DNA of 33,751 bases from Candidatus Nanohalarchaeota archaeon (GCA_017610385.1 JAFCCC010000007.1:1-33751), one strand, 5' to 3'; positions 71 to 31,581 are shown, counted from the first letter of the stretch. Program-made: numbers and translations. Notes: generated by a model not told the origin, from the letters alone.

Positions 71-568
71 CTATGTTTTTTTAAATGAGAATTTTTTAAG
101 TTTATTTGGTGCAAAAACTAAAGAATAAACAATAAATCCAAACAACACCGCTAATAAAATACTTGCTGATATAATCCACCAGACCTTGCTTTTCGGCTGA
201 TTTTCAGAAGTTTTGAGTAAGCAAACTCCATTTTCACATCCAAATTCACAAGTCTCTTTTAATACAAAACTACCATTTATACATTCATTTAAACTTAATC
301 CAATACACTTTAGTTCTCCGTCTGTGCAATTTGTTATTACATCTTCATTAGAATCATTAGTTGTTGTAGTTGTTTCAGCTGTGATTTCCGTAGTTTCACT
401 ACTATTAGTAGTAACTGAAGCACCGCCACTAAGAGTAGAGCCACTAGGACTACCAGGACTTCCTGTAGTTACTGTTCCCGGTTGACCAGAAACAAAAGTA
501 ACACCCACCACTACAAAGAAAAGTAACAGTACAGTAAAAACTACAGTAATTTCAGATAGGTTTTTCAT
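71..568 (-). CDS. Membrane-anchored surface protein (signal peptide, Ser/Thr-rich linker, Cys-rich module, C-terminal TM)
   Basis: Hydrophobic N-terminus, S/T/G-rich stretch, CTDGELKC...CEFGCENGVC module, C-terminal TM followed by basic tail. Confidence 0.7.
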   Translation of the reverse strand: MKNLSEITVVFTVLLLFFVVVGVTFVSGQPGTVTTGSPGSPSGSTLSGGASVTTNSSETTEITAETTTTTNDSNEDVITNCTDGELKCIGLSLNECINGSFVLKETCEFGCENGVCLLKTSENQPKSKVWWIISASILLAVLFGFIVYSLVFAPNKLKKFSFKKT

Positions 569-806
569 TGTACTATTATGAAAACATGCCGAGACCGAGT
601 ATATAAAGATATTTATAAAGGAAATTTTGTGAAATAAAAAAATTCCAGAGCTCTTTGAAGAGTCAACGGCAGTTAAAACGCGCGTATTTAAAATAAAGGA
701 AATTTCTACATTCTTTAAAAAATTTATAGAAAATTTAGAACCTCTTTTTTATTAATTTTTTCATCATATTTGAATTATTTCAAAGAATAATTTAAGTAAT
801 TATTAA

Positions 807-1637
807 TTAACTGGAATTCAAAAATTTTCGTAGAGAGTTTTCTTTGCTTTTATGGGGAGTTAACTTAACTCTTTGGAAGTCTTTCGCAAAAACAACTTCG
901 CAGGAATTTTTTAGATTTTTTTTAAGCCACCACTCTTCTCGTTTAATAGAACCATACAACATAGCTAATCCAAAATGATGAAGAACTACTTTCTCTGGCT
1001 TGATTTTATTTATAATAGTCAAAACATCTTGTGTACTCAAATGGCCCTTCCAAGGATTGTTTTTTGGTCTAAGAACATTTATAAAAAGGATTTTGCAATC
1101 TTTAAAGAAATCGATTAGACCATCAAAATAAATTGTATCTGCAATATATCCTAATGAAAAACCTGTCTTTTTTATTTTAAAAGAAAGTGTATTTGGATCG
1201 CCATGCTTAGATTTAATAAACGAAAACTCATAATCACCAAATTTCTTTATTTCTTCATTATGAATCTCAATTACCTTTTCTAAACTCTTTAAATGATAAT
1301 TATCTATTTTTTGAGCAAAATTATAGTCTTTTTCTTTTAATCCGTGTAAGACAGTAGTATTTGTTATCAATGTGCCTTTTTTGTTGGTTGCACCAGACGT
1401 AATTGCCTCAATAATCACTTCTGCATCATTACAATGATCGATATGTGCGTGAGTAACTAAAAGTAAATTTAATTTATTTAATGGAACTTTTTGGGATAAC
1501 GCATGAACTAATGCGCCGGGGCCTGGATCTACAAGAAGTTTTAAAGAATCTAAGTCAAAATAAACTCCACCAGTCCGTCTCATTTGTTTTATTGAGCACA
1601 TTCGTCCTCCACCAGTGCCAAGAAAAAGTGCTTCCAT
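807..1637 (-). CDS. MBL-fold metallo-hydrolase
   Basis: FLGTGGGR N-terminus, VDPGPG, THAHIDH metal-binding motif, ADT and LHH motifs. Confidence 0.9.
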   Translation of the reverse strand: MEALFLGTGGGRMCSIKQMRRTGGVYFDLDSLKLLVDPGPGALVHALSQKVPLNKLNLLLVTHAHIDHCNDAEVIIEAITSGATNKKGTLITNTTVLHGLKEKDYNFAQKIDNYHLKSLEKVIEIHNEEIKKFGDYEFSFIKSKHGDPNTLSFKIKKTGFSLGYIADTIYFDGLIDFFKDCKILFINVLRPKNNPWKGHLSTQDVLTIINKIKPEKVVLHHFGLAMLYGSIKREEWWLKKNLKNSCEVVFAKDFQRVKLTPHKSKENSLRKFLNSS

Positions 1638-1722
1638 AAGTATGTTTTTATAGTTCTTTGTATAAAAATCTTCTATCTCAATAAGTACTATAAAATATAT
1701 TTAGGTGAATTTAAGCTAAGAG

Positions 1723-3402
1723 GTGATTAATTTCAAAAGAACAATCGTAACTTCTGCATTACCATACATTCATGGAATTCCGCATTTAGGAAACATTTGT
1801 GGTAGTATGCTTCCGGCAGATATTTTTCACAGATTTTTGAACCTAAAAGAAGAAGAAAATATCTTTATTTGTGGTTCAGATACTCATGGAACCCCTATTG
1901 AAATAGCGGCGCAGAGAGCAGGAATTAAACCAGAAGATTTTGCCAATAAAAATCATATTGCAGTTAAAAAAGTTTTAGAGGGTTTTAATTTGGATTTTAC
2001 ATATTATGGAAAAACTAATACTCAATTAAATAAAGAAGAAACTTACAAAATTCTAATCGGTCTATATAAAAATGGATATATTATAGAAAAAGAAGAATCG
2101 CAACCATATTGTAAGAACTGTAAAAGATTTTTAGCAGATAGGTATATTGAAGGAAGGTGTCCCTTTTGTGGTGGTCTAGCAAGAGGTGACCAATGTGATG
2201 ATTGTGGAAAATTATTAGAATCTATTGATTTAATTGATCCTGTCTGCAAATTGTGTGGTAGACGGAAAATTGAAATCAAAAAAACTAAAAACCTGTACTT
2301 ACAATTAAATAAATTCACCAAAAAATTGAAAAAGTGGATTGATGAAAAAGATCCAATTCCATTCAATAAAAAACAGGAAGTTTTAAACTTAATTAAAAAT
2401 GGATTAGTAGATCGATGTATTACTAGAGATATTTCATGGGGGTTTCCAGTTCCCGCTAAAGACTTAGGATTGAACGAAGACATCTACAAAAGTAAAGTAA
2501 TTTATGTGTGGTTTGATGCTCCAATTGGCTACATTTCAATCACTCAGGAGTATTTTAAAGAACGTGGGAAGATGTATTTGTGGGAAAGATATTGGAAAGA
2601 TAAAAACTGCAGAACAATTTATACTTTGGGGAAAGATAATACCATATTTCATTCTATAATTTTTCCAGCAATGTTAATTGGCTCTGGAGAGAATTACAAT
2701 CTACCAGATAAAGAAATGATTCATGAATATCTCCTTTCAGAGGATATTAAATTTTCTAAGAGTAGAGGAACGGGATTAGATTCTAAAAAAGCACTTAAAT
2801 TACTTCCCGCAGATTACTGGAGATTTTATTTATCGTATATGCTTCCAGAAGAACAAGATACAAAATTCTCATGGAAAGATTTAGAAAACAAAATAAATAA
2901 TGTTTTGAATGATGGGGTTGGTAATTTCGTAAATAGGACACTAACACTAACAGAAAAGTGGTATGATAATAAAATTCCGAATGCAGAATTAGGTGGGAAA
3001 GATCAGAAAATATTAGAAAAGGCAAAAGAAATAATCAAAAAATATATTGATCATTTTGAAAATTTCAGAATAAAGAAGGCGTTAGAAACCGCTTTAGAAA
3101 TTCCAAGACTAGGAGATAAATTTCTGGGGGATGAAGAACCCTGGAAAAATTTAGAAAGGAGAAATGAAGTTTTATTTGTTTGTGTAAACTTAATCAAATT
3201 GACTGCAGTTTTATTATGGCCATTCATACCCGAATCCTCCGAGAAACTCTATTCGATGCTTAATCTAAAAGATAAAATAATATTACCAAAACTAGATGGC
3301 CTGTTATTTGAATTATTAGAAGCAGGGCATAAATTAGGTAAAAAGGAAATCCTGTTCCAGAAAATTGACGCTAAAAAATTGCAAGAACAGGCGGAAAAAT
3401 AA
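1723..3402 (+). CDS. metG: Methionine--tRNA ligase (catalytic and anticodon-binding part, no C-terminal OB domain)
   Basis: TSALPY..G.PHLGN (HIGH), GSDTHG, Zn knuckles, YVWFDA, GKDN..FH, KFSKS; GTG start after GAG. Confidence 0.97.
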   Translation: MINFKRTIVTSALPYIHGIPHLGNICGSMLPADIFHRFLNLKEEENIFICGSDTHGTPIEIAAQRAGIKPEDFANKNHIAVKKVLEGFNLDFTYYGKTNTQLNKEETYKILIGLYKNGYIIEKEESQPYCKNCKRFLADRYIEGRCPFCGGLARGDQCDDCGKLLESIDLIDPVCKLCGRRKIEIKKTKNLYLQLNKFTKKLKKWIDEKDPIPFNKKQEVLNLIKNGLVDRCITRDISWGFPVPAKDLGLNEDIYKSKVIYVWFDAPIGYISITQEYFKERGKMYLWERYWKDKNCRTIYTLGKDNTIFHSIIFPAMLIGSGENYNLPDKEMIHEYLLSEDIKFSKSRGTGLDSKKALKLLPADYWRFYLSYMLPEEQDTKFSWKDLENKINNVLNDGVGNFVNRTLTLTEKWYDNKIPNAELGGKDQKILEKAKEIIKKYIDHFENFRIKKALETALEIPRLGDKFLGDEEPWKNLERRNEVLFVCVNLIKLTAVLLWPFIPESSEKLYSMLNLKDKIILPKLDGLLFELLEAGHKLGKKEILFQKIDAKKLQEQAEK

Positions 3403-3470
3403 TCTATTATCTATAATATATTTTGTTCTAACAATATGCTTTAAATAGTAAAGTATATATTTACTTCTTA

Positions 3471-4121
3471 TTGGTGAAAATAATGCCTGTATCAGGAATA
3501 CTGCCTATAGTCGTTGTAAATCAGGATTTTTTTACTGTACGCTCTGGCAAAGGAATACCTCTCACAAATTTACAGGAATGTGATGGTTGGCTACAAGGAA
3601 ATAACGGAAGGTACGCTCCTAAAAAGCCCTTAGGAAGGATTGGAGACTATAAAGTATTGTTTCCTTATGCAGAAATAAATGGAAGTGATCCAATCGCAGT
3701 TATTGGATTTTCTAAAGGATACGATATCTCACTAAGAAACCGATCTGGATATGAAGTGCGTATGTGTGATCCTTTTGAAAATAAAGTGCTTTTAGTCAGA
3801 TCGGAAAGAGATCCAGAAGGTTTTATTATAACGAAATATGTTTCTGCGGATCTCCAAGATGTAAAAAATGCATTAAAATCTTCTAAAACACCTAAAAGAG
3901 ATCTAATTAAACTATTTTCTAATGAAACAGCCATATTGGACTCTGATTTAATGATTTCTCTAACTGAGTCTCCGAAAGACGGATTAATACTAACTTCAAT
4001 TCCTGCAAGTTGGGTAGAGGAACAATATGGTTTACCAAATAGATTACGTGAAAATACCATACAAGAAATGCCTCAGGGATGGAAACCAGTATATGGATTT
4101 GGAAAATATTTTGGAAAATAG
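3471..4121 (+). CDS. Hypothetical protein (ORFan); start may be the internal ATG
   Basis: 216-aa ORF filling the gap between metG and the OB-fold gene; no recognisable motif. Confidence 0.65.
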   Translation: MVKIMPVSGILPIVVVNQDFFTVRSGKGIPLTNLQECDGWLQGNNGRYAPKKPLGRIGDYKVLFPYAEINGSDPIAVIGFSKGYDISLRNRSGYEVRMCDPFENKVLLVRSERDPEGFIITKYVSADLQDVKNALKSSKTPKRDLIKLFSNETAILDSDLMISLTESPKDGLILTSIPASWVEEQYGLPNRLRENTIQEMPQGWKPVYGFGKYFGK

Positions 4122-4170
4122 AACCATTAAAGTATTAAATAATTCTTTGTAAAACACATATTAGATTAAA

Positions 4171-4497
4171 ATGATTTCATTAAAGGAGTTTTTAAAAATA
4201 GATTTAAGAACAGCGACCATTGTTGAAGTTAAAGATCATCCTAACGCAGATAGATTATATTTGATGAAAGTTGATTTAGGTAATGAAATTAAACAATGTT
4301 GTGCAGGAATCAAGTCACATTACTCTAAAGAAGAGTTAACAGGAAAAAAGGTTGTTGTTGTCGCGAATTTGGAACCAGCAATGCTTCGAGGCGAAAAATC
4401 AGAAGTTATGTTGTTGGCGGCAGTAACAGAGAGAGATGAAGATATTGTTTTACTTCAACCAGAAAAAGAACTTTCAAATGGCGTTAAAGTTAGATAA
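4171..4497 (+). CDS. Stand-alone tRNA-binding OB-fold protein (MetRS C-terminal domain / Trbp111 / CsaA family)
   Basis: F.KIDLR...I.EV.DHPNADRL....VDLG, VVVANLEPA.LRGEKSE.MLLAA. Confidence 0.93.
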   Translation: MISLKEFLKIDLRTATIVEVKDHPNADRLYLMKVDLGNEIKQCCAGIKSHYSKEELTGKKVVVVANLEPAMLRGEKSEVMLLAAVTERDEDIVLLQPEKELSNGVKVR

Positions 4498-23519: not shown

Positions 23520-23757
23520 GGGGGTATGGGGTAATGGCATCCTTACCGGCTCCAGAGAATAGATAGCTCCGTTAACACGATAATGTGTCGCTCTATGCAC
23601 GAGCACATATAATCTTGTTCAGAGTGAAGTGAGTTGTTTACAACTCGCTGTGTTGATTAAGCTGACTGCAGCTTATTTGGAGCGATGAGTCCGTAGGACA
23701 ATGACTTAATACTTATGAAGACACCGGTCGATCCCGGTTCAAATCCGGGTGTCCCCA
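23520..23757 (+). tRNA. tRNA-Trp(CCA) with 167-nt intron at 37/38 (23556-23722)
   Basis: Acceptor GGGGGTA/TGTCCCC, anticodon arm ACCGG-CTCCAG|A-CCGGT, T arm CCCGG-TTCAAAT-CCGGG. Confidence 0.92.
23650..23688 (+). ncRNA. Intron-encoded C/D-type guide predicted for Cm34 of tRNA-Trp
   Basis: TTTGGAGC (23676-23683) pairs with GCTCCAGA (23549-23556); ATGA D-box variant at 23685; N+5 base pairs with C34; C-like GTGTTGA at 23650. Confidence 0.6.
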
Positions 23758-23796
23758 AACACATTATTTTTTAATCAGTAGAACAAAATACTATTT

Positions 23797-24534
23797 ATGA
23801 TTCCAAAAGTTCTTAGTGATTCAATGGGTTTCTTATGCAAGCATCCGGGATTTTTTATTCCTAGATTAATTGATTCTACAAATTGGAGTTTTATATTGTA
23901 CTTTTGGTTAAGACAAATTTTCAATCTTACAACCAATCATCAAATACAACACCTTTATTCTATTTTACTTGTTTTACCAATAGCATTTTTGTTTTGGCAA
24001 ATTACGATTATTATCAATAGCATGTATCCTGTTTTAGTCAAGCAATTTAGAGTAAATGGCTTATTAAAAATGAAACAGGCATTTCAAGAAGCATTGTACA
24101 AATACCCTCATGCATTTGTAGGAAATGCGTTGCCTATAGTGATAATGGCTCTTTGTTCACTTCCTTTTGGAGGATTAGCAATTTGGGGATATCTTGGAGG
24201 CATTAAAATTCTATTATACGTTGGAAGTATATTGGTTGCCGTTGTTGCCATAATTGGAAGTATTATTTTCTTTTTTTCGCCAACTGCAGTAATTTTAGAA
24301 AAAGGCAATCCACTCAATGCAATAAAGCATGGGATAAAATTATGTAAATCAAATTTAAAGGAAGTCACATTTTTCACAATATTTTCATTCTTGGTTTTGT
24401 CATTAGCAATAAGATTTGGTGGAACCTTACAAGAATATGGAATTGTTGGATTTTTTTTAAGCAGATATTTGGGTGCTATTATCCTAACCTACACCTCTGT
24501 AATAAATCCTAATATTTACATAGAATTAAAATAA
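23797..24534 (+). CDS. Multi-pass membrane protein
   Basis: About 6 TM helices with the FF.P.AVILE......AIK.G..L.K.N pattern of archaeal membrane hypotheticals. Confidence 0.75.
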   Translation: MIPKVLSDSMGFLCKHPGFFIPRLIDSTNWSFILYFWLRQIFNLTTNHQIQHLYSILLVLPIAFLFWQITIIINSMYPVLVKQFRVNGLLKMKQAFQEALYKYPHAFVGNALPIVIMALCSLPFGGLAIWGYLGGIKILLYVGSILVAVVAIIGSIIFFFSPTAVILEKGNPLNAIKHGIKLCKSNLKEVTFFTIFSFLVLSLAIRFGGTLQEYGIVGFFLSRYLGAIILTYTSVINPNIYIELK

Positions 24535-24679
24535 TGCCGAGGGCGAGACTCGGACTCGCGACCTCCACGTATCTCAACATAAATCATGGAAAACGTGAGT
24601 TTTCTCATTACTCACAAAGATACGTTTATGAGCTTCGCCTAAGATTATGTGGCGCTCTAACCAACTGAGCTACCTCGGC
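24535..24679 (-). tRNA. Elongator tRNA-Met(CAT) with two introns: 30/31 (24634-24648, 15 nt) and 37/38 (24571-24626, 56 nt)
   Basis: Spliced: GCCGAGG TA GCTC AGTTGGTTA GAGC G CCACG CTCATAA CGTGG AGGTC GCGAG TCCGAGT CTCGC CCTCGGC A; both introns form BHB motifs. Confidence 0.9.
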
Positions 24680-24737
24680 ATGATCTATCAAACTTTCCGT
24701 AGAATACTATTTAAAAGTGTAATCTGTTTTCTAATAT

Positions 24738-25004
24738 ATGGTAAAAATGAAAAATGGAACAAAGTCTACAATTTGTGTTTATTGCGGAAAAACTGCCACC
24801 AGAATGAACAAATGGAAACAACCCGTTTGTAGCGAACATGTAATCAAAGGAGAGAAAAAAAGAGATTGCCCAGAATGTGGCGCAACTATGGTTTTACGCA
24901 AAGGAAAATTTGGTTATTTTTGGGGTTGTTCTGCATTTCCCAATTGTGATAAAACACTTTCCATACAACAAGAGTTAGATTTAGACAAAGATAAAAAAGA
25001 GTAG
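24738..25004 (+). CDS. Stand-alone topoisomerase-type C4 zinc-finger protein
   Basis: CPECGATMVLRKGKFGYFWGCSAFPNC plus N-terminal CxxC...CxxH. Confidence 0.85.
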   Translation: MVKMKNGTKSTICVYCGKTATRMNKWKQPVCSEHVIKGEKKRDCPECGATMVLRKGKFGYFWGCSAFPNCDKTLSIQQELDLDKDKKE

Positions 25005-25022
25005 CTGTATTAAAGTTAATGT

Positions 25023-25109
25023 GGGCCTGTGGCTTAATTGGATAGAGCAGCTGGCTTCGGCCTTTTGGGAGTTACCAGCAGGTTGGGGGTTCGAGTCCCT
25101 CCAGGCTCA
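25023..25109 (+). tRNA. tRNA-Arg(TCG) with 13-nt intron at 37/38 (25061-25073)
   Basis: Acceptor GGGCCTG/CAGGCTC, anticodon arm GCTGG-CTTCGG|A-CCAGC, BHB helix CTTC/GGAG, T loop TTCGAGT. Confidence 0.92.
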
Positions 25110-25172
25110 CTTTTTTAAATCAGGCAAAGTATTAGTGCATTTTATTTAAACATATGAACAGAAGTTTGTTGT

Positions 25173-25496
25173 ATGCAAGAAGTAATTCAAATGCTTCCCG
25201 CGCACTTGAAAATAGGTATTATAGCAAGTATTGGCTCAGCAGTATTAATTATTGCGGCAGGAATTTTCTTATTAAATTACTATAAAAATTTCTTTATTGG
25301 GGAAAACCCTAAAGAATGGAAATTAGCTGCTTTTGGTCTAATTCTTTATGGTTTATTCGTACCTATAGACATTGCGACTATTTTAATACTTTCTGAGAAA
25401 TATTTGTTTTTATTGTGTTTAGCACAACTAGTTGGTCCGTTAGTGATTCTGTTTGGTTTCTTAAAGGCATTTAGATCCAGAGAGGGCATAATATGA
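25173..25496 (+). CDS. Small 3-TM membrane protein
   Basis: Three hydrophobic helices, YYK.F..G...P.EWK motif. Confidence 0.7.
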   Translation: MQEVIQMLPAHLKIGIIASIGSAVLIIAAGIFLLNYYKNFFIGENPKEWKLAAFGLILYGLFVPIDIATILILSEKYLFLLCLAQLVGPLVILFGFLKAFRSREGII

Positions 25497-25789
25497 TTTC
25501 TCTAGCACTTTTAATTCCAAATATTGTTCTAATTACGCTTTTTGCAATTGATGGGCTTTTAATCTATAAATACTATAAAAGATTTTACGAAGGCCCAAAA
25601 CTGCCGTCAGAATGGAAAATTTTAATCTTAAGTTTAATCTTATTTCCACTATTAAGTAAAATCTCTGTTTTAATATTACGAACAAATCCCAGTACAAATT
25701 TGGTTGTGTTTTTATATGTAATTCCACTACTTACTGCAATGGTTTTAAGCAGTAGTACCTTAATTCTATGGAAAAAACACAAGTTATAA
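25493..25789 (+). CDS. Small 3-TM membrane protein, paralogue of the upstream gene
   Basis: ATGA overlap; same YYK.F..G...P.EWK motif. Confidence 0.7.
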   Translation: MISLALLIPNIVLITLFAIDGLLIYKYYKRFYEGPKLPSEWKILILSLILFPLLSKISVLILRTNPSTNLVVFLYVIPLLTAMVLSSSTLILWKKHKL

Positions 25790-25803
25790 TACTCTATAAG
25801 TAA

Positions 25804-26133
25804 GTGATAATGATGACCAAAACAGATACTCTAACAAATTTAGTAAAAGAACGAATTGAAATTTTGTTTGATGAGGCTGAGAAAGCATTTAAAACGCACC
25901 CAGAACGATCAAATCGTTATGTAGAACTTGCTCGCATATTATCTATGAAAATCAATTACAAATTACCAAAAGAAATCAAAATGAGGTTTTGCAAATTTTG
26001 CTATGCGTATCTTGTTCCTGGAGCCAATTGTAAAATTAGATTAAATTCGAATAAAAAAGTAAAGACTATTCAATGTGAGGTGTGTGGTAAAACTAGAAGA
26101 ATTCCTTATTCTCAAAGAAATTCACCAAAGTAA
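25804..26133 (+). CDS. rnp4: Ribonuclease P protein component 4 (Rpp21)
   Basis: ERI.ILF..A, RYV.LAR..S.K, FCKFC...LVPG.N..IR, C..CG..RR.P. Confidence 0.95.
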   Translation: MIMMTKTDTLTNLVKERIEILFDEAEKAFKTHPERSNRYVELARILSMKINYKLPKEIKMRFCKFCYAYLVPGANCKIRLNSNKKVKTIQCEVCGKTRRIPYSQRNSPK

Positions 26134-26958
26134 TGATAATCCTAACCAAATTAAAAACCCAATTAAGGCCCCAGAACAAACTGCGGGCAGTCCTGGATAA
26201 ACTTTTCCTTTTTTTGCTCGAAACATTAAAAATGAAAGAAATAGTGCGGAAACTAAAATTGAACTAATACTTGCCCACAAACCAAACACTCTAAAAATAG
26301 AAATGGAGAAAATCATTGGAATTATAATATCACCACCACCTAAAACACCTACTTCTGTACCTATTTTTCCTTTTTCTGATTTCTGACTGCGTTTAGATTC
26401 CTTCGTTTTTTTCTTGTGATACATGAATGCCATCAGGGTGTTTGTTTTAAATCCAGATTTGGCTAAAGAAACCATGTGTTTTGTAAAGTGCACTGCAATA
26501 ATATCATATACGGATAATAACATTATAATCACCAAAGAAGGAATTACACCAACAGTCACTCCAAAAAAAGATCCTGCGCCTGCGAAAGCGCACACACAAA
26601 TTAAATTTTGAACAAACAAAGATTTAACAAAGATTCTAATTAAAACCGCCGAGATTGCAAGAAGTACTGCGATAATAAAACTGAAAAAAGACCCAAAAAA
26701 TAAAAAAGTTGTGGAAAACAAAGCCAAATAAAACCATCCCTTGATTAAAAAATTCACTTTAAATTTATACAAAATTAGAATTATTGCTGTAGCCACCATC
26801 AAAGACAGGAAAAAATACAGTCCAGAAATCGGATTGGAGTTTGTGATCACGGTTTCTTCAACAACCTGTGTAGTTAATAATTGAGATGCCGATAGCAAGC
26901 CCAAAAGATTACTAATTAAAAACAAAATTAAAGGAATGAACAAAAATTTTTTTTCCAT
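26122..26958 (-). CDS. Presenilin-family intramembrane aspartyl protease
   Basis: Multi-TM; YD..AV..TKHMV.LA, LGGGD and PGLP motifs. Confidence 0.9.
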   Translation of the reverse strand: MEKKFLFIPLILFLISNLLGLLSASQLLTTQVVEETVITNSNPISGLYFFLSLMVATAIILILYKFKVNFLIKGWFYLALFSTTFLFFGSFFSFIIAVLLAISAVLIRIFVKSLFVQNLICVCAFAGAGSFFGVTVGVIPSLVIIMLLSVYDIIAVHFTKHMVSLAKSGFKTNTLMAFMYHKKKTKESKRSQKSEKGKIGTEVGVLGGGDIIIPMIFSISIFRVFGLWASISSILVSALFLSFLMFRAKKGKVYPGLPAVCSGALIGFLIWLGLSLLW

Positions 26959-27032
26959 AGCAGTTATTTTTATTCAGTTCTTAAATGCTTTCTTTATTTT
27001 TCAAAAAGCAAATCAGTTCGTAGTATTAAAAA

Positions 27033-27413
27033 CTAATCAATTAGAACTGCGTTTACAATCCCATGTTGACCTGGTCTTGAGGTTACTTTTGCGTTACCCT
27101 TTTCTGTAGAAATAATTGCGCCTTTTGTAATGATATCTCTTCGGATATAATCCAAATTAGCGTGATTTTCAATAATATCAATTATTTTCGCCTTTGTTGC
27201 CTTACCGGTTTTTGTATTTGTCAAATTAGCGAATTCTGCTCTTTTTAATCTAAGTTTTAGGTTTCCACCCTCTACTCTACTCTTTAAAAGCCTATTGGAA
27301 CCTAAATGAGTTTCAGTAAAATTTCTACCTCTATTAAATTTTCTTTTTCTTCTTAAAGTTTTATATTTTCCAGAAGTACTTTTTCTTCTTGATCTTAAGT
27401 TCCATACAGCCAT
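27033..27413 (-). CDS. rps8e: 30S ribosomal protein S8e
   Basis: SRRK.T.G, R..GGN.K.RL, RR.IITKGAII.T..G.AKVTSRPGQ.G.VNAVL. Confidence 0.97.
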   Translation of the reverse strand: MAVWNLRSRRKSTSGKYKTLRRKRKFNRGRNFTETHLGSNRLLKSRVEGGNLKLRLKRAEFANLTNTKTGKATKAKIIDIIENHANLDYIRRDIITKGAIISTEKGNAKVTSRPGQHGIVNAVLID

Positions 27414-27492
27414 TTTAGTTCTACTGAAGATTTAAGCTAAAAGTTTAAATACCTATATGTTTCTTAGTAACATAGTTATGGGGGAAAATAAC

Positions 27493-27711
27493 ATGTCACA
27501 GAGACCATTAGATGTTTTAGACAATTCAAAAAGCAAAAGAGTCATTGTCAAGTTAAAAAACGGTAGTATAATCTCAGGAGTATTAAGAGCTTTTGACTTA
27601 CATTTAAACATGTGGTTGGAAGAAGCCGAATTAGAAGACAAAGACGCAAAAACAAAGTTTGGAAAGTTATTAGTCAGAGGAGATAACGTAATAATTATTT
27701 CGCCCGAGTAA
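27493..27711 (+). CDS. Sm/Lsm protein
   Basis: RPLD.L.......V.VKLK.G....G.L.AFD.HLN..L..A, LVRGDNV..ISP; precedes rpl37e as is usual in archaea. Confidence 0.95.
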   Translation: MSQRPLDVLDNSKSKRVIVKLKNGSIISGVLRAFDLHLNMWLEEAELEDKDAKTKFGKLLVRGDNVIIISPE

Positions 27712-27801
27712 TTAAGGTATTCTTAATAACAAATGGTGTTTCGTTCTATACGAACTAAAATAAGGGATATCTGAATTAAACTTTCATTGAGAGGTATTGA
27801 A

Positions 27802-27975
27802 ATGGGTACAGAAGGCGCAATGCGCAAAGGAAAAAGAAATAAACATGTCCATGGCAAATGTAGACGATGTGGTAAAGGCGCGTTTCATTTAAGTAGAGGC
27901 ATCTGTGCAGCGTGTGGTTTTGGAAGAAGCAAAAAGATTAGAAGATATGGTTGGATGAAGCTAAGAAAAAAGTAA
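27802..27975 (+). CDS. rpl37e: 50S ribosomal protein L37e
   Basis: GKRNK..H..CRRCG...FH.....CAACGFG.S.K.R.Y.W; GAGGT SD before ATG 27802. Confidence 0.95.
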   Translation: MGTEGAMRKGKRNKHVHGKCRRCGKGAFHLSRGICAACGFGRSKKIRRYGWMKLRKK

Positions 27976-28092
27976 TAAAACTAATAAAAAGTAATTGTTC
28001 TTTTATCTGAAAACCGAACACAATATAAACTTGTTCTAAAAAATGTTAGTATCATACCTATTACTAACAAGAAATATCATGAGGTATTTGAT

Positions 28093-28241
28093 GGGCTCGT
28101 AGCTCAGTTGGTAGGAGCCTTTTTGCACAGGCAAGCGCGCAAAAACTCTCGGGAAAAGTACGCTTCCGCAAGTAAAAAGGTCCGACAGAGAGCACACGGC
28201 TCTTAACCGTGGGGTCGCGGGTTCGAGCCCCGTCGGGCCCA
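28093..28241 (+). tRNA. tRNA-Lys(CTT) with 76-nt D-loop intron (about 20/21; 28113-28188)
   Basis: Spliced GGGCTCG TA GCTC AGTTGGTA GAGC A CACGG CTCTTAA CCGTG ... CGGGCCC A; relaxed BHB GTTG/CGAC with GT|A and AG|A bulges. Confidence 0.9.
28118..28170 (-). repeat. 53-nt hairpin element, copy in tRNA-Lys intron (inverted relative to the Gly copy)
   Basis: Reverse complement aligns ungapped with 33171-33223 at 42/53 nt (manual count). Confidence 0.8.
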
Positions 28242-28312
28242 TTCAGTTTTCTTGATTTAAGGTTTTCTAAAAAGTAGTAAATATTATAAATTACAAGACA
28301 TATTTTCTCTGA

Positions 28313-28915
28313 ATGACTCAGAGAATTTACGAAACCATCTTAGAAGAAAAATCAGTTAGTTTAAAGGAATATGGGTTAACGTTAAAAAAACTAGAAGCAC
28401 TAAGACACACAGCGCCCACAGACCTTGTATCTTCTTTTAAGAATTCGCCGTACTTAAACTGGTTGGGTGAAGAAAACTCCTGTGAAATTCCTTTACAATT
28501 ACAGGGAACCTCCTTTGCCGAGCTCGTTGATCTATATTTTTCACAAGAGGGAACAATATCTCGTGGAACAATGTACACAGATATACTTAAAATCACAAAA
28601 TCAATAATGTGGATTGCAGAGATAGACAATCACACGGTGGGGGGAATTTGGTATGAACCACAAGAAGCCCTTACAGGAATCTTACCCACGCACATCATAG
28701 TTAATCCAGAATTTAGAGAATACGGCATAGGTTCTGCATTAGAAGAGATTTCTTGTGAAAACCTAAGGCATCAAAACAGATATAAGCGGCCATTAATTTT
28801 ACAAATATGTTGGCCAATCAATAGAAAAGAGACAGAACCAGCTTGGTTCAAGAGAAGAGGTTATTCTATACAAAAATCTAGTTTTATTTATTGTGCACAA
28901 AAAAGCATTGAATAA
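28313..28915 (+). CDS. Divergent GNAT-fold acetyltransferase
   Basis: WIAE.D..TVG, IIVNPEFREYGIGSAL (motif A), WFKRRGY. Confidence 0.7.
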   Translation: MTQRIYETILEEKSVSLKEYGLTLKKLEALRHTAPTDLVSSFKNSPYLNWLGEENSCEIPLQLQGTSFAELVDLYFSQEGTISRGTMYTDILKITKSIMWIAEIDNHTVGGIWYEPQEALTGILPTHIIVNPEFREYGIGSALEEISCENLRHQNRYKRPLILQICWPINRKETEPAWFKRRGYSIQKSSFIYCAQKSIE

Positions 28916-28947
28916 TCTTAATAAATAGTCGAATTCTAAAAGTAATT

Positions 28948-29643
28948 ATGAATACATTTAGAGTCAAGGTTCTAGAAATTCAGGAAAATGTTCCTAATGT
29001 ATTTTTCATTAGATTAGAACGACCAAAGAACTTTAAATTTCAAGCAGGGCAATTTATTTTCATTAAAAAGATTGTTAATCAAATTCCGGCAATTCGCGCG
29101 TATTCTATTTCAACAACGCCACAACAAAAAGAATATTTTGAATTATGCGTAAAAAAAGTTTCTGGGGGAAAGGTTTCACCGATTTTATGCTCTTTAAAAA
29201 AGAATCAGATTTTAGAATTTAAAGGGCCTGCCGGACGATTTACCTTAGATAAGGACATAAAAGGAGAACTTGTTCTAGCGGCAACTGGAACGGGAATTTC
29301 TGCTATTAAAGGAATCCTCGTAAATGCTCTAGAAACTGGCTTCAAGAACCAGATTTATTTGTTTTTTGGCGTTAAAACTCAAAAACACATCATCTATAGA
29401 AAAGAATTAGAGAAACAAAAAAAAAAATACAAGAATTTCCATTTCATCCCAGTCTTAAGCAGGGAAAATTGGGTGGGAGAAAAAGGTCACGTTCAAGATC
29501 CAATTAAGAAATACGCGAAGAAACTAAATTTAAATGAAACACACATGTTTATTTGCGGAATTCCGTTAATGGTTCAAGAAACTAAAAAATTGGCCTTAAA
29601 ACTCGGGTTTCAAGAAGAAAACATGCATTTTGAGCGGTGTTGA
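28948..29643 (+). CDS. FAD/NAD(P)-binding oxidoreductase (ferredoxin reductase-like)
   Basis: F.AGQF, RAYSIS, GG..S, GP.G.F, ATGTGI, FICG.P.MV, HFE. Confidence 0.92.
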   Translation: MNTFRVKVLEIQENVPNVFFIRLERPKNFKFQAGQFIFIKKIVNQIPAIRAYSISTTPQQKEYFELCVKKVSGGKVSPILCSLKKNQILEFKGPAGRFTLDKDIKGELVLAATGTGISAIKGILVNALETGFKNQIYLFFGVKTQKHIIYRKELEKQKKKYKNFHFIPVLSRENWVGEKGHVQDPIKKYAKKLNLNETHMFICGIPLMVQETKKLALKLGFQEENMHFERC

Positions 29644-29661
29644 TAAAAATAATAAAATAAT

Positions 29662-30108
29662 TTATAAGTTTAAACCCATTTCATAATGTTTTATTTTAAA
29701 ACCTATTTTTTTGTAAAAATTAATTGCATTGGTATTGTTCGTTAAAACGGCCAACCGCAAGGTTTTTGTTTTGTGTGCCTTTGACCAAGTTTTAAAGTAT
29801 TCGATAAGTTCTGTTCCAATTCTATTTTTTCTGTAGTTCGGCAATACAAAAATATCATCCAAGTAAGCAACTTTTTCATAAGTATTAGAAATTAAGGATG
29901 CAATTAAAAAACCAAGAAGTTTAGAGTTTTCTTCGGCAATTACCAAGATACGTTTTTTATTTGAAATCAATCTTTCAAACTCTTCTTTTATTTTTTGAGA
30001 TGAACTTTCGAGATTAGTTCCGGCTTGCTCGTTATATTCTCCAAGAGCTTGTTTTCTTAAGAATTCATAAGACATATAATCTTCAGGCAGAATGGTTCTA
30101 ATAAGCAT
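29662..30108 (-). CDS. GNAT family N-acetyltransferase
   Basis: IFVLPNYRKNRIGTELI, L.V...N..AINFYKKIGF. Confidence 0.9.
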   Translation of the reverse strand: MLIRTILPEDYMSYEFLRKQALGEYNEQAGTNLESSSQKIKEEFERLISNKKRILVIAEENSKLLGFLIASLISNTYEKVAYLDDIFVLPNYRKNRIGTELIEYFKTWSKAHKTKTLRLAVLTNNTNAINFYKKIGFKIKHYEMGLNL

Positions 30109-30190
30109 AATATATAATTGGAGTGTTTATACAAAAAGACGCACTAAAGAAACATTTTTATAAACTTGTTCTCATTACCTCTTTAGTTAT

Positions 30191-30287
30191 AGTGAGTTAA
30201 TTATAACTCGCTGTGTTTGTGAATTTTGTTCACAAGTTAGAAAAACTCGTAAGAGTTTTACGTGATGATCAAACTTTCAGAAGTTTG
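30191..30287 (+). repeat. Array of four hairpins directly upstream of tRNA-Ile
   Basis: Stems at 30191-30212, 30217-30235, 30242-30259, 30270-30287; first 27 nt match 23628-23654 at 24/27. Confidence 0.75.
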
Positions 30288-30420
30288 GACCCGTAGCTCA
30301 GTCGGTTAGACATCCTAAATCAAATCGATTGCTGGGATGGCCCAAAGCGCTACATTCGTTTAAAAGACGCAGGCGAAGCTGATAACGTAGAGGTCGTGAG
30401 TTCAAGTCTCACCGGGTCCA
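30287..30420 (+). tRNA. tRNA-Ile(GAT) with two introns: about 22/23 (30310-30345, 36 nt) and 30/31 (30354-30377, 24 nt)
   Basis: Spliced GGACCCG TA GCTC AGTCGGTTA GAGC G CTACG CTGATAA CGTAG AGGTC GTGAG TTCAAGT CTCAC CGGGTCC A; first boundary could shift by 1 nt. Confidence 0.88.
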
Positions 30421-30426
30421 TTAAAG

Positions 30427-30960: not shown

Positions 30961-31581
30961 ATGTTTAACTTTCTAAAAAAGTTTTTGTCTTTATTCTCTA
31001 AAAAAAGAGAGGCTATAAGTATTGGAATTTATGGTCCACCAAATGTAGGAAAAAGTACTCTAGCGAATAAAATCTCTTTAGACTTTACTGGATCGGAATT
31101 AAGTGCTGTTTCGGAAATACCGCATGAAACAAGAGTAGTTCAAAAAAAAGAGCGTGTTGAATTGGCTATTGACTCTAAAACAATGATCATAAATTTATTA
31201 GATATGCCCGGAATTTCAACAAAAGTAGATTTTCGTGATTTTGAAGAATTTGGCATTAGTGAAACAGAATCCAAGAATAGGGCAAAAGAAGCGACAAGAG
31301 GAATCGTAGAAGCGATTAAATGGTTGGATAATGTTGATGCGTGTTTGGTTGTTTTTGATTCTACAAAAGACCCATATACTCAAGTAAATATTACGATTAT
31401 AGGCAATTTAGAAGCGAAAAATATTCCGATAATTATCGTAGCAAATAAAATTGATTTGGACGATTCAGACCCGCAAAGGATCGCGGATGCATTCCCACAG
31501 CATCCAATGATTGAAATCTCTGCTAAAGAGAATATGAACATAGATAAATTATATAAAACAATATTTGATAAGTTGAGGTAA
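30961..31581 (+). CDS. oapA: Era-like GTP-binding protein (OapA family)
   Basis: GIYGPPNVGKSTLAN, S.IPHETR, D.PG, R..EAT.G..EAI.WL, DPYTQVN, NKID, ISA. Confidence 0.9.
   Translation: MFNFLKKFLSLFSKKREAISIGIYGPPNVGKSTLANKISLDFTGSELSAVSEIPHETRVVQKKERVELAIDSKTMIINLLDMPGISTKVDFRDFEEFGISETESKNRAKEATRGIVEAIKWLDNVDACLVVFDSTKDPYTQVNITIIGNLEAKNIPIIIVANKIDLDDSDPQRIADAFPQHPMIEISAKENMNIDKLYKTIFDKLR

Follow-up and report, generated by a model that had tools for sequence, protein, structure and literature searches.

Within the window analysed here, a 33,751-nt stretch of an archaeal genome, a tRNA-Trp(CCA) gene with a 167-nt intron at about 23556-23722 was located on the plus strand (23520..23757) by ARAGORN with introns allowed, a tRNA-Met(CAU) gene with two introns lies on the minus strand (24535..24679), and a tRNA-Ile(GAU) gene with two non-canonical introns was annotated by hand on the plus strand (30287..30420, borders provisional). 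The last of these was missed by both ARAGORN and the Rfam tRNA model; tRNA-like ends at 30287-30423 were matched by the tmRNA model, and a permissive deletion trial gave Ile(GAU) more often than any other reading (1900 of the accepted constructs). When the window was scanned with Rfam 15, only tRNA reached the gathering threshold, and permissive Rfam scans of the two sites described below and of the tRNA-Trp intron of one related genome returned chance-level matches only.

A 27-base segment of the tRNA-Trp intron (23628-23654, AGTGAGTTGTTTACAACTCGCTGTGTT) recurs upstream of the tRNA-Ile gene (30191-30217, AGTGAGTTAATTATAACTCGCTGTGTT), both read on the plus strand, with 24 of 27 bases identical, and a second match at three or fewer mismatches appeared in none of 100 dinucleotide-preserving shuffles of the window. 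All three mismatches are confined to the closing pair and loop of a hairpin designated H1, an 8-bp stem (AGUGAGUU/AACUCGCU) that contains a U.G pair, is topped by a closing pair and loop that vary, and is followed by GU; the closing pair is G-C at the tRNA-Trp intron site and A-T at the tRNA-Ile leader site. An earlier sequence-only reading had reported this identity and this swap of the closing pair, both of which were verified, and the hairpins of different sequence that it placed 3' of each site are present in MFE folds. Judged by its sequence, the match is true homology between two copies of H1.

In the tRNA-Trp intron, on the plus strand, H1 (AGUGAGUU-G-UUUA-C-AACUCGCU, 23628..23649, from the sequence and the MFE fold) has GUGA just 5' of it and is followed by a C-box-like GUGUUGAUUA (23650..23659, read from the sequence) and by a second, H4-like hairpin, AGCUG-ACUG-CAGCU (23660..23673, MFE fold). 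Next to these lies a putative cis guide unit for 2'-O-methylation of C34 (23676..23708), identified with a script test of the N+5 rule and the MFE fold, which consists of the guide UUUGGAGC (23676-23683, G23680 opposite C34), AUGA (23685-23688), the hairpin GUCCguaGGAC (23689-23699) and AAUGACUUA (23700-23708); the guide pairs with the anticodon loop in the MFE fold of the tRNA-Trp precursor. H1 of this intron is predicted to be a loop-capped stem between a D-like GUGA and the C-like GUGUUGAUUA, upstream of the C34 guide, the boxes of the unit being GUGA and GUGUUGA with the first GA of the C-like box missing. Model R1 aligned 23627-23675 to its H3/C-box/H4 half, and the string class of GUGUUGAUUA recurs in the rRNA-spacer copy. 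The tRNA-Trp unit has 36 of 47 bases in common with the leader of the rRNA-spacer tRNA-Ala, with three compensatory pairs and none broken; relative to the rRNA-spacer copy, one compensatory pair lies in the hairpin at 23660..23673.

Archaeal box C/D sRNAs have guides of about 10-12 nt, and the target nucleotide faces the fifth guide position 5' of box D or D'. The second intron of the tRNA-Met gene carries the guide UUUGUGAGU (24618-24610) and AUGA (24608-24605, both on the minus strand), and the nucleotide opposite C34 is exactly 5 nt upstream of the AUGA box. The same rule, under which C34 faces the fifth nucleotide 5' of AUGA, is obeyed in 5/7 tRNA-Trp and 2/2 tRNA-Met precursors. The intron guides of both tRNAs form duplexes of 7-9 bp, and both introns have a second motif C'/D' of the form AUGA-hairpin-UGAxUUA. 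A GTGAGT...ACTCAC stem that had been put forward as a relative of H1 is indeed present in the second tRNA-Met intron, but its kinship to H1 was rejected, since the stem fits the N+5 rule of a box C/D-type C34 methylation unit and is better explained as a C34 guide.

The second H1 site lies 75 nt upstream of the tRNA gene at 30287-30420 and belongs to a plus-strand cassette of 99 nt and four hairpins that forms the tRNA-Ile leader (30189..30287; 114 bits, and 40.6 bits with R2, the model of the order-wide cassette described below). It is composed of H1 (30191-30212), H2 (30215-30237), H3 (30242-30259), ACGUGAUGAU (30260-30269) and H4 (30270-30287), the final G of which is position 1 of the tRNA. 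A TATA-like TTTTTATAAA (30155..30164, plus strand), the presumed promoter of the leader-tRNA unit, stands 26 nt before H1, and TATTTAAAAA is found at a comparable distance upstream of two other copies; the cassette fills the gap between this putative promoter element and tRNA-Ile position 1. The host genome holds seven copies of the 99-nt cassette at 103-114 bits and one divergent copy at 53 bits, and the four-hairpin consensus has six pairs with double changes among seven copies. The boxes of the tRNA-Ile-leader copy are UAGA and GUGAUGA. Throughout the host genome, the D-like box of the cassette is UAGG or UAGA, not CUGA, and only the second GA is invariant in GUGAUGAU; because of these departures and the lack of the first GA in the tRNA-Trp C-like box, a canonical kink-turn is not assured. 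A second motif C'/D' is absent from both the 99-nt leader cassette and the dispersed order-wide cassette.

Exact-stem copies of H1 number 16 in the 788-kb host genome (10 forward, 6 reverse), compared with 0 in 69 other genomes of the same order and 0 matches to a reversed-pattern control. Enrichment near tRNA genes, which the sequence-only reading had anticipated, was found: 7/17 H1 copies are in a tRNA gene or no more than 100 nt away from one, where randomisation averaged 0.31 (2000 trials, maximum 3 copies near tRNA). A want of further copies and of covariation had been set beforehand as grounds for refutation; the 16 exact-stem copies are there, as are compensatory changes. H1 and several further hairpin modules recur across the host genome in mosaic arrays, in keeping with the modular hairpin array at tRNA loci that had been described. 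Twelve of the 16 copies share their arrays with U-rich hairpins and lack box-like flanking sequence, and H1 is antisense 3' of four tRNAs and within a second tRNA-Trp intron. As a multi-copy imperfect palindrome in mosaic arrays and both orientations, the set of 16 has the traits of REP/BIME- or MITE-type repeats. That structure is being maintained, as was also claimed, is supported by the compensatory pairs of the tRNA-Trp/rRNA-spacer units and the 99-nt cassette but not by H1 itself, whose 8-bp stem is identical in all 16 copies and therefore uninformative on structure; since it occurs in both orientations, DNA-level copying explains H1 alone at least as well as RNA-level maintenance.

The 3' half of the 99-nt cassette is evidently the local form of an order-wide cassette, in which a D-like box and a strongly covarying stem are followed by RUGAUGAU and then by a palindromic hairpin. 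A search of 185,579 species genomes with the cassette pattern returned 57 loci, 53 in records titled Nanohaloarchaea, Nanohalobium, Nanosalina or uncultured archaeon and four in bacterial coding DNA; the named records with the cassette are almost only Nanohaloarchaea. Model R2 matches 42/70 genomes of the order, with about 250 matches in total. When 58 copies were aligned, in an alignment itself fitted to the model, 96.8% of cells were paired (78% in shuffles), all nine stem pairs had double changes, compensatory cells numbered 147 against 47 in shuffles (0/500 shuffles as high), and there were 21 G.U pairs against 7 A.C pairs. The apparent invariance of the inner 5 bp of the palindromic hairpin comes in part from the search pattern, which fixed them. 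The 5' box of the cassette reads C[UC]GA, the 3' box reads [ACG]UGAUGAU, and a loop caps the 9-bp covarying stem between them. In the kink-turn of archaeal box C/D sRNAs, a stem joins the C box RUGAUGA and the D box CUGA, and the order-wide cassette looks like a kink-turn of box C/D type with a loop closing its terminal stem.

Among 52 distinct copies in related genomes, those in sense orientation include nine that abut a tRNA 5' end and six inside introns, those in antisense include eight at a tRNA 3' end and six inside introns, and the rest comprise six within 30 nt of an ORF start and 17 in other contexts. Roughly half of the tRNA-associated copies are antisense to the tRNA, and in these a kink-turn cannot form. 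Box-plus-hairpin abuts the rRNA-spacer tRNA-Ala in two distant genomes. The host genome encodes fibrillarin, Nop5 and L7Ae, the proteins with which archaeal box C/D sRNAs assemble, and also RNase P RNA. We give an even chance to the reading that kink-turn and hairpin modules from intron-borne box C/D guides have been copied into RNA that is later removed. The modules would descend from box C/D units borne in introns or spacers (tRNA-Trp, tRNA-Met, rRNA spacer), and DNA-level copying, in either orientation, would have placed them in discarded RNA such as leaders, introns, trailers and spacers. There they would share the transcript of their host RNA and be cut out of it by RNase P, RNase Z or the splicing endonuclease; sense copies bearing a kink-turn may bind L7Ae, and the dispersed copies themselves would guide no methylation. 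The mobile, permuted, tRNA-linked C/D box sRNAs of Nanoarchaeum equitans are a precedent for this reading (PMC3491384). Weighing against it are the atypical boxes of the host copies, the H1 copies that lack box-like flanks, the antisense copies and the failure to find a Y1 transposase.

The placing of the palindromic hairpin also fits a processing 'punctuation' cassette, in which kink-turn and hairpin would mark where precursors are cut, acting at the 3' edge of the hairpin in sense copies and at its 5' edge in reverse ones, and so contributing to tRNA ends, splice sites and mRNAs with a short leader or none. In nine loci the end of the hairpin falls between -2 and +5 nt relative to tRNA position 1, in eight it lies at a tRNA 3' end, and in two it comes 0 or -1 nt before the dnaJ-like start codon; in the host genome it adjoins a convergent S3Ae gene at its stop codon and, between S19 and L22, stands 1 nt before the L22 Shine-Dalgarno sequence. 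It likewise meets 3' exons. In tRNA-Trp, Met and Arg introns a 6-nt strand between hairpin and 3' exon pairs with the anticodon loop, and hand reading of these introns in related genomes has GGAG, UGAG or GAAG pairing with the loop, followed by 2 nt and then the 3' exon. A BHB tRNA intron has a 4-bp helix with two 3-nt bulges at the splice sites, and by the same hand reading the palindromic hairpin stands where the outer helix of a BHB would be. We nevertheless consider this account unlikely. One complete related genome has six cassettes for 42 tRNA genes, the other tRNAs having ordinary short leaders, so the cassette is no general requirement; RNase P RNA is present and accounts for cleavage at position 1 without it; distances from hairpin to start codon range from 0 to 47 nt; and we know of no nuclease here with a cleavage site at the hairpin base. 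The fuller version, a Nanohaloarchaeota-wide RNA punctuation mark that is bound by L7Ae and directs an endonuclease to either side of the hairpin base, seems decidedly doubtful. Were it true, the cassette would define tRNA 5' and 3' ends, aid splicing of relaxed BHB introns, and give rise to leaderless or Shine-Dalgarno-first mRNAs, for example of dnaJ and ribosomal proteins.

Direct repeats of tRNA ends flank some of the insertions, 8 and 10 nt long in a related genome and 21 nt (five mismatches) after tRNA-Leu in the host; at 8-21 nt they are not target duplications of fixed length. Tandem arrays of element plus tRNA fragment were also observed. Both would suit DNA-only palindromes of REP/BIME or MITE type, recognised as single-stranded or cruciform DNA by a recombinase or transposase and devoid of any RNA role, as would the multi-copy imperfect palindromes with their fixed T.G mismatch, in mosaic arrays and both orientations, often at contig ends; the insertion sites (anticodon loop, T loop, 3' end) are, we take it, the classical integrase sublocations in tRNA genes. 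Repeats of that type come with a cognate transposase (Y1/RAYT) or with terminal inverted repeats and target duplications. Yet the Y1 transposase (PF01797) had no match in the host genome (93.5% complete), so that no copying mechanism was identified, the only TnpB-like match was below threshold, and the cassette pattern had no relevant match in viral contigs. Single-stranded C[UC]GA and UGAUGAU around a covarying stem, moreover, are an RNA kink-turn signature that DNA recognition does not predict, and the intron copies adjoin working-looking C34 guides. We consider repeats of a purely DNA-level kind, with no RNA role, quite unlikely.

Stand-alone box C/D-like small RNAs with targets in trans, expressed as passengers of tRNA precursors and freed through splicing or by RNase P or RNase Z, would have the C/D proteins encoded in the genome at their disposal. 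They have a precedent in Nanoarchaeum equitans (PMC3491384), and insertion into any transcribed context is reportedly enough for box C/D sRNA maturation (PMC7994747). The dispersed cassettes speak against such RNAs, having no second C'/D' motif, and any D'-like tetramer is spaced from the C-like box by 9 nt that fall within a hairpin. In one complete genome, the 12 nt preceding the D-like box matched the rRNA operon no better than shuffles did in 5/5 copies (64 to 255 of 300 shuffles matched equally well), and independent guide function appears very improbable. Least credible is a set of transcription signals, either a portable promoter/operator whose TATA box would be the C-like box and whose repressor site would be the palindrome, or terminator hairpins: the points where sense palindromes end, tRNA position 1 or a start codon, are what a constant spacing from promoter to start would produce, UUUUAC or UUAUGAU falls at about -31 to -21, and H1 arrays downstream of tRNAs have T5 tracts on the tRNA strand, but in a related complete genome ordinary tRNA promoters have TTTAAAA-type boxes near -40, unlike the C-like box, and the leaders are short, the TATA-like box some 25 nt upstream of the cassette's 5' end implies that the cassette is transcribed, and intronic copies, antisense copies and the covarying stem are left unexplained.

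If the modules do derive from intron-borne box C/D guides, they constitute an alignable RNA family not in Rfam, with about 250 matches in 42 genomes and strong covariation. They would then be the clearest sequence-level case so far of box C/D kink-turn units leaving the tRNA intron and spreading through a reduced archaeal genome, landing where tRNA-processing enzymes remove them. This bears on the movement of archaeal C/D sRNA genes, on the origin of non-canonical tRNA introns and tRNA fragments in DPANN archaea, and on whether leader L7Ae sites affect expression. In practice, cassettes and multiple introns conceal tRNA genes from standard finders, tRNA-Ile and tRNA-Trp having been missed here, and the repeats break assemblies at contig ends.

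A cis-acting box C/D guide reportedly resides in the archaeal pre-tRNA-Trp intron, in work said to be that of Clouet d'Orval in 2001 and Bortolin in 2003. The host tRNA-Trp and tRNA-Met introns resemble it in that the nucleotide opposite C34 is 5 nt upstream of AUGA and a hairpin and UGAUxA box follow; they differ in that the second box pair (D-like, stem, C-like) is loop-closed and circularly permuted between lineages, and that half-unit copies are dispersed, guide-less, in leaders, trailers, spacers and mRNA leaders. The punctuation mark considered above would be the reverse of mitochondrial tRNA punctuation. Bacterial REP/BIME elements are short imperfect palindromes in many copies, in mosaic non-coding arrays and both orientations. 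The host hairpins are likewise multi-copy, mosaic and in both orientations, but the host is archaeal, no RAYT-type transposase was found, the repeats have a strong association with the boundaries of tRNA processing, and one module has box C/D-like motifs.

Transposed tRNA introns are said to occur in Thermoproteales (a description attributed to Fujishima, 2010). Disruption of tRNA genes by integrating elements has also been described (PMC3293823). The present case shares with them related intron sequences across tRNA genes and positions and tRNA fragments beside insertions; it differs in having sub-intron hairpin modules that also occur outside introns, and no recombinase-carrying element was found. 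Nanoarchaeum equitans, like the host a small-genome DPANN archaeon, has mobile, permuted, tRNA-linked C/D box sRNAs, for which mobility was proposed (PMC3491384). There, D-before-C sRNAs lie in a tRNA-Met intron, beside tRNA genes and beside gene breakpoints; dicistronic tRNA-sRNA genes and intron-borne C/D sRNAs occur, and the permuted ones work as circles (PMC3491384). These sRNAs are complete guides with C/D and C'/D' and rRNA targets (PMC3491384), whereas the dispersed units described here are only half-units, each with a palindromic hairpin that is fixed; they are found in either orientation and form a conserved, order-wide multi-copy family.

Comparison of positions 23628-23654 with positions 30191-30217 bore out the sequence-only reading that the two strings have 24 of 27 bases in common, with a G-C closing pair in the first replaced by A-T in the second; the remaining differences are two loop bases. 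The match is real and far from chance, and no second match at three or fewer mismatches arose in 100 dinucleotide-preserving shuffles of the window. The common hairpin, H1, is an 8-bp stem with a U.G pair and a variable closing pair and loop. Its first copy lies within the 167-nt intron of tRNA-Trp(CCA) (23520-23757, ARAGORN with introns allowed), and its second precedes by 75 nt a tRNA gene (30287-30420) that was missed by default ARAGORN, by ARAGORN with introns allowed and by the Rfam tRNA model. Hand reading assigned this gene as tRNA-Ile(GAU) with two non-canonical introns, an assignment supported only loosely, and the brute-force deletion trial on it was permissive and left the intron borders unfixed. 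Default ARAGORN found one tRNA in the window and the Rfam model three; tRNAs with long or multiple introns (30287-30420, 23520-23757 and 24535-24679) escape standard finders.

The genome to which the window belongs comprises 788,277 bases in 18 contigs (93.5% complete, G+C about 32%; the window is contig C17) and is the sole representative of its family among the genomes compared. The exact H1 stem, closed by any loop of 4-9 nt, occurs 16 times in it and is absent from 69 other genomes of the order; a reversed-pattern control gave zero. Twelve of the 16 copies stand outside the 99-nt cassette of the tRNA-Ile leader, in other mosaic arrays that are often tandem and often at contig ends, where they are joined by AAGCCUUUU...AAAAGGCUU hairpins and other modules; H1 is a free-standing member of a modular repeat family. 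When the covarying copy in the rRNA spacer was added to the 16 exact stems (n = 17), seven copies proved to be in a tRNA gene or at most 100 nt from one, compared with 0.31 on average and never more than 3 in 2000 random placements. Sense copies occupy the tRNA-Trp intron and three leaders, and antisense copies lie 29-204 nt downstream of four tRNAs. The earlier description of a modular hairpin-array element associated with tRNA loci was essentially right. Beyond the window, a second tRNA-Trp(CCA) gene (contig C13, 67127-67376) has a 177-nt intron containing an antisense H1-like stem and the repeat modules GGAAAUgcauuaAUUUCC, GGAAACUUaacaAGUUUCC, GAGCUUUU..AAAAGCUC and UCCGAGCGCUCGGA, which also occur in front of the 23S gene and where contigs end. 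By eye, the strings ACAGGCAAGCG and AAAGTACGCTTCCGCAA are common to the intron of the tRNA at 28092-28242 and the T-loop intron of a tRNA-Tyr-like gene (contig C11, 130040-130130), and form another shared intron module.

BLAST and fuzzy searches recovered seven copies of the roughly 99-nt cassette. R1, the covariance model built on them, scores these copies at 103-114 bits; besides weaker relatives, it picks out one more copy, the eighth, which is diverged and scores 53 bits. In the four-hairpin consensus, H1 is followed by H2 (UGUGAAuuuugUUCACA), H3 (AAAACUCguaaGAGUUUU), the string GUGAUGAU directly after H3, and H4 (CAAACUUucagAAGUUUG). H2 and H3 are near-invariant and H1 and H4 variable, and six of the 33 cassette pairs are changed on both sides. 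Immediately 3′ of H4 comes position 1 of tRNA-Ile, of tRNA-Arg(CCU) or of a two-intron tRNA-Tyr-like gene. In other copies H4 is followed by 21 nt that duplicate, in diverged form, the T-loop and 3′ end of a tRNA-Leu gene just upstream; by the stop codon of S3Ae, a convergent gene; by the Shine-Dalgarno sequence that precedes L22 in the S19-L22 spacer; by the 5′ region of the S13 operon; or by one further region with no feature assigned. Three cassette copies carry a TATA-like box 21-31 nt upstream of H1, so the cassette may constitute the entire transcribed leader.

The tRNA-Trp intron carries a different arrangement, a 47-nt unit (23628-23674) in which H1 is followed by GUGUUGAUUA and a second hairpin. 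This unit shares 36 of 47 bases with the leader of tRNA-Ala(UGC), a gene of the 16S-23S spacer, with three fully compensatory pair changes and no pair broken; the comparison is stronger evidence of a maintained two-hairpin unit than the single closing-pair change. Directly 3′ of the unit, UUUGGAGC pairs with the anticodon loop and is followed by an AUGA box, a short hairpin and AAUGACUUA. Counting upstream from the box, the fifth nucleotide is the one that faces C34, as the rule for box C/D methylation guides requires, and the arrangement matches the known cis-acting guide of the tRNA-Trp intron (cited in PMC7994747). It is present in five of seven tRNA-Trp precursors from this and related genomes and in both tRNA-Met precursors, placing C34 guides adjacent to the units in the introns of both tRNAs; a search for an AUGA-type C34 guide in the tRNA-Trp intron on contig C13 found none. 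The GTGAGT...ACTCAC stem of the tRNA-Met intron, previously described as related, has the C34 guide itself as its 5′ arm (24618-24610, minus strand) and is therefore not related to H1. The tRNA-Trp introns of related genomes run in the order guide, AUGA, hairpin, GAUGAUUA, D-like box, stem, C-like box, palindrome and splice site, and the intron in the window has the two halves reversed relative to this order.

The weak R1 matches in related genomes all have one core in common: first a box containing GA, then a hairpin whose sequence varies, then (C)GUGAUGAUC and finally RAACUUuCAGAAGUUY. An IUPAC pattern of this core retrieved 57 loci among 185,579 species genomes, 53 of them in records titled Nanohaloarchaea, Nanohalobium, Nanosalina or uncultured archaeon, and the other four in bacterial coding DNA without the upstream stem. 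R2, a covariance model of this order-wide cassette built from 15 copies, matched 42 of 70 genomes of the order under stricter filters that lose weak matches, giving about 250 matches in all and no more than 14 in any one genome. Broken down by family, the matched genomes are 36 of 50, 4 of 10, 0 of 8 and 1 of 1. It scores the tRNA-Ile leader at 40.6 bits, and its other matches in the window's genome are the rRNA-spacer copy and one copy abutting another tRNA. The order-wide stem covaries strongly: in 58 copies aligned by fitting to the model, all nine pairs of the first stem are changed on both sides, paired cells amount to 96.8% against 78.0% in shuffles, and compensatory cells number 147 against 47, a value reached by none of 500 shuffles. 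In the palindromic hairpin, however, the search pattern had itself preset the five inner pairs. G.U pairs are commoner than A.C pairs (21 versus 7), which points to the sense strand. The single-stranded flanks of the stem are box C/D-like, reading C[UC]GA 5′ of it and [ACG]UGAUGAU 3′ of it; they would correspond to the D and C boxes around the would-be terminal stem of a C/D RNA, which in this case is capped by a loop. Related genomes also contain another conserved hairpin, whose loop is GGUUACGCUC and whose stems vary; it recurs 5′ of the cassette and within tRNA introns (e.g. loci L049, L052, L069, L074 and L087, and the tRNA-Trp intron in L011), and a GAAACUCnnnnGAGUUUC hairpin recurs in their tRNA flanks.

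The repeat family is enriched at tRNA processing boundaries. In a context census of 52 distinct pattern-defined copies, nine copies abut a tRNA 5′ end in sense (gap -2 to +5), six are intronic in sense just before the 3′ exon, eight are antisense at a tRNA 3′ end, six are antisense at an intron 5′ end, six have the start of an ORF (70 codons or longer) no more than 30 nt downstream, and 17 are elsewhere, about nine of which adjoin degenerate tRNA fragments by eye. Two of the six ORF cases are dnaJ-like starts (MAKEYY...; L059:1162-1240 and L076:2980-3059, from two Nanohaloarchaea MAGs) at which the palindromic hairpin ends 0 or 1 nt before the ATG, implying that the mRNA becomes leaderless on cleavage or else that the start codon stands at the hairpin foot. 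The C-like box could instead be read as a TATA box. One complete related genome has only six cassettes for 42 tRNA genes, and the remaining genes, 30-odd in number, have short leaders and ordinary TTTAAAA boxes at about -40, so the cassette is neither a general requirement nor a promoter, and the TATA reading was rejected as the main explanation. In related genome G027 (contig C1, 600447-600626 and 542336-542513), short direct repeats of tRNA ends, 8 nt (GGCGGGGT) before tRNA-Pro and 10 nt (GCGGCGTCCG) beside tRNA-Gly, bracket hairpin-bearing inserts between cassette and intact tRNA and look like insertion scars.

A role for the dispersed cassettes as rRNA methylation guides was rejected, as all five copies tested showed complementarity to rRNA no better than shuffles. 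A self-cleaving ribozyme was set aside by eye only, the GUGAUGA ... GAAA order being set against the hammerhead core and the helix order not fitting. Viral origin was dismissed, since all nine pattern matches in viral contigs are coding DNA without stem and boxes, eight of them one repeated low-GC phage-like sequence also present in a Clostridioides record. Two patterns specific to the modules of the window's genome gave no loci in metagenome contigs, and Rfam scans gave only tRNA at threshold and chance-level matches under permissive settings.

The order-wide cassette may be read as a loop-capped box C/D-type kink-turn. The window's genome encodes the C/D proteins fibrillarin, Nop5 and L7Ae (a clear gene on contig C18) as well as RNase P RNA, one 16S and one 23S. 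An ORF at 31270-31458 of the window gave a sub-threshold L7Ae-family match (20 bits, cut-off 22.1). The RNase P RNA gene (contig C6, 3321-3594, 136 bits) comes after the 23S gene (248-3192) on the same strand, at a distance of 129 nt, and is followed at about 4050-4296 by a degenerate leader cassette and a tRNA, an arrangement (from 248-3594 through the following tRNA) that suggests rRNA, RNase P RNA and tRNA form one transcription unit. The dispersed units may descend from intron- or spacer-borne box C/D units copied at the DNA level in either orientation; they would be co-transcribed with the host RNA and then removed by tRNA-processing enzymes, and L7Ae would bind them. Against the box C/D reading, the boxes are degenerate in the window's genome, most H1 copies lack any boxes, about half of the tRNA-linked copies are antisense, the dispersed units tested show no rRNA complementarity, and a search of this genome for a Y1 transposase found no such copying enzyme; a TnpB zinc-ribbon domain gave one sub-threshold match (22.1 bits, cut-off 26.3).

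The H1 module is part of a larger system, absent from Rfam, that links this genome to the order-wide putative kink-turn/hairpin cassette; the literature searched gave no account of such elements in Nanohaloarchaeota. One report states that any transcribed context is enough for a C/D unit inserted there to mature (PMC7994747). The nearest precedent for the units described here is provided by the mobile, permuted, tRNA-linked C/D box sRNAs of Nanoarchaeum equitans (PMC3491384), and the known kinds to which the system probably stands closest are mobile or permuted box C/D units and mosaic palindromic repeats.
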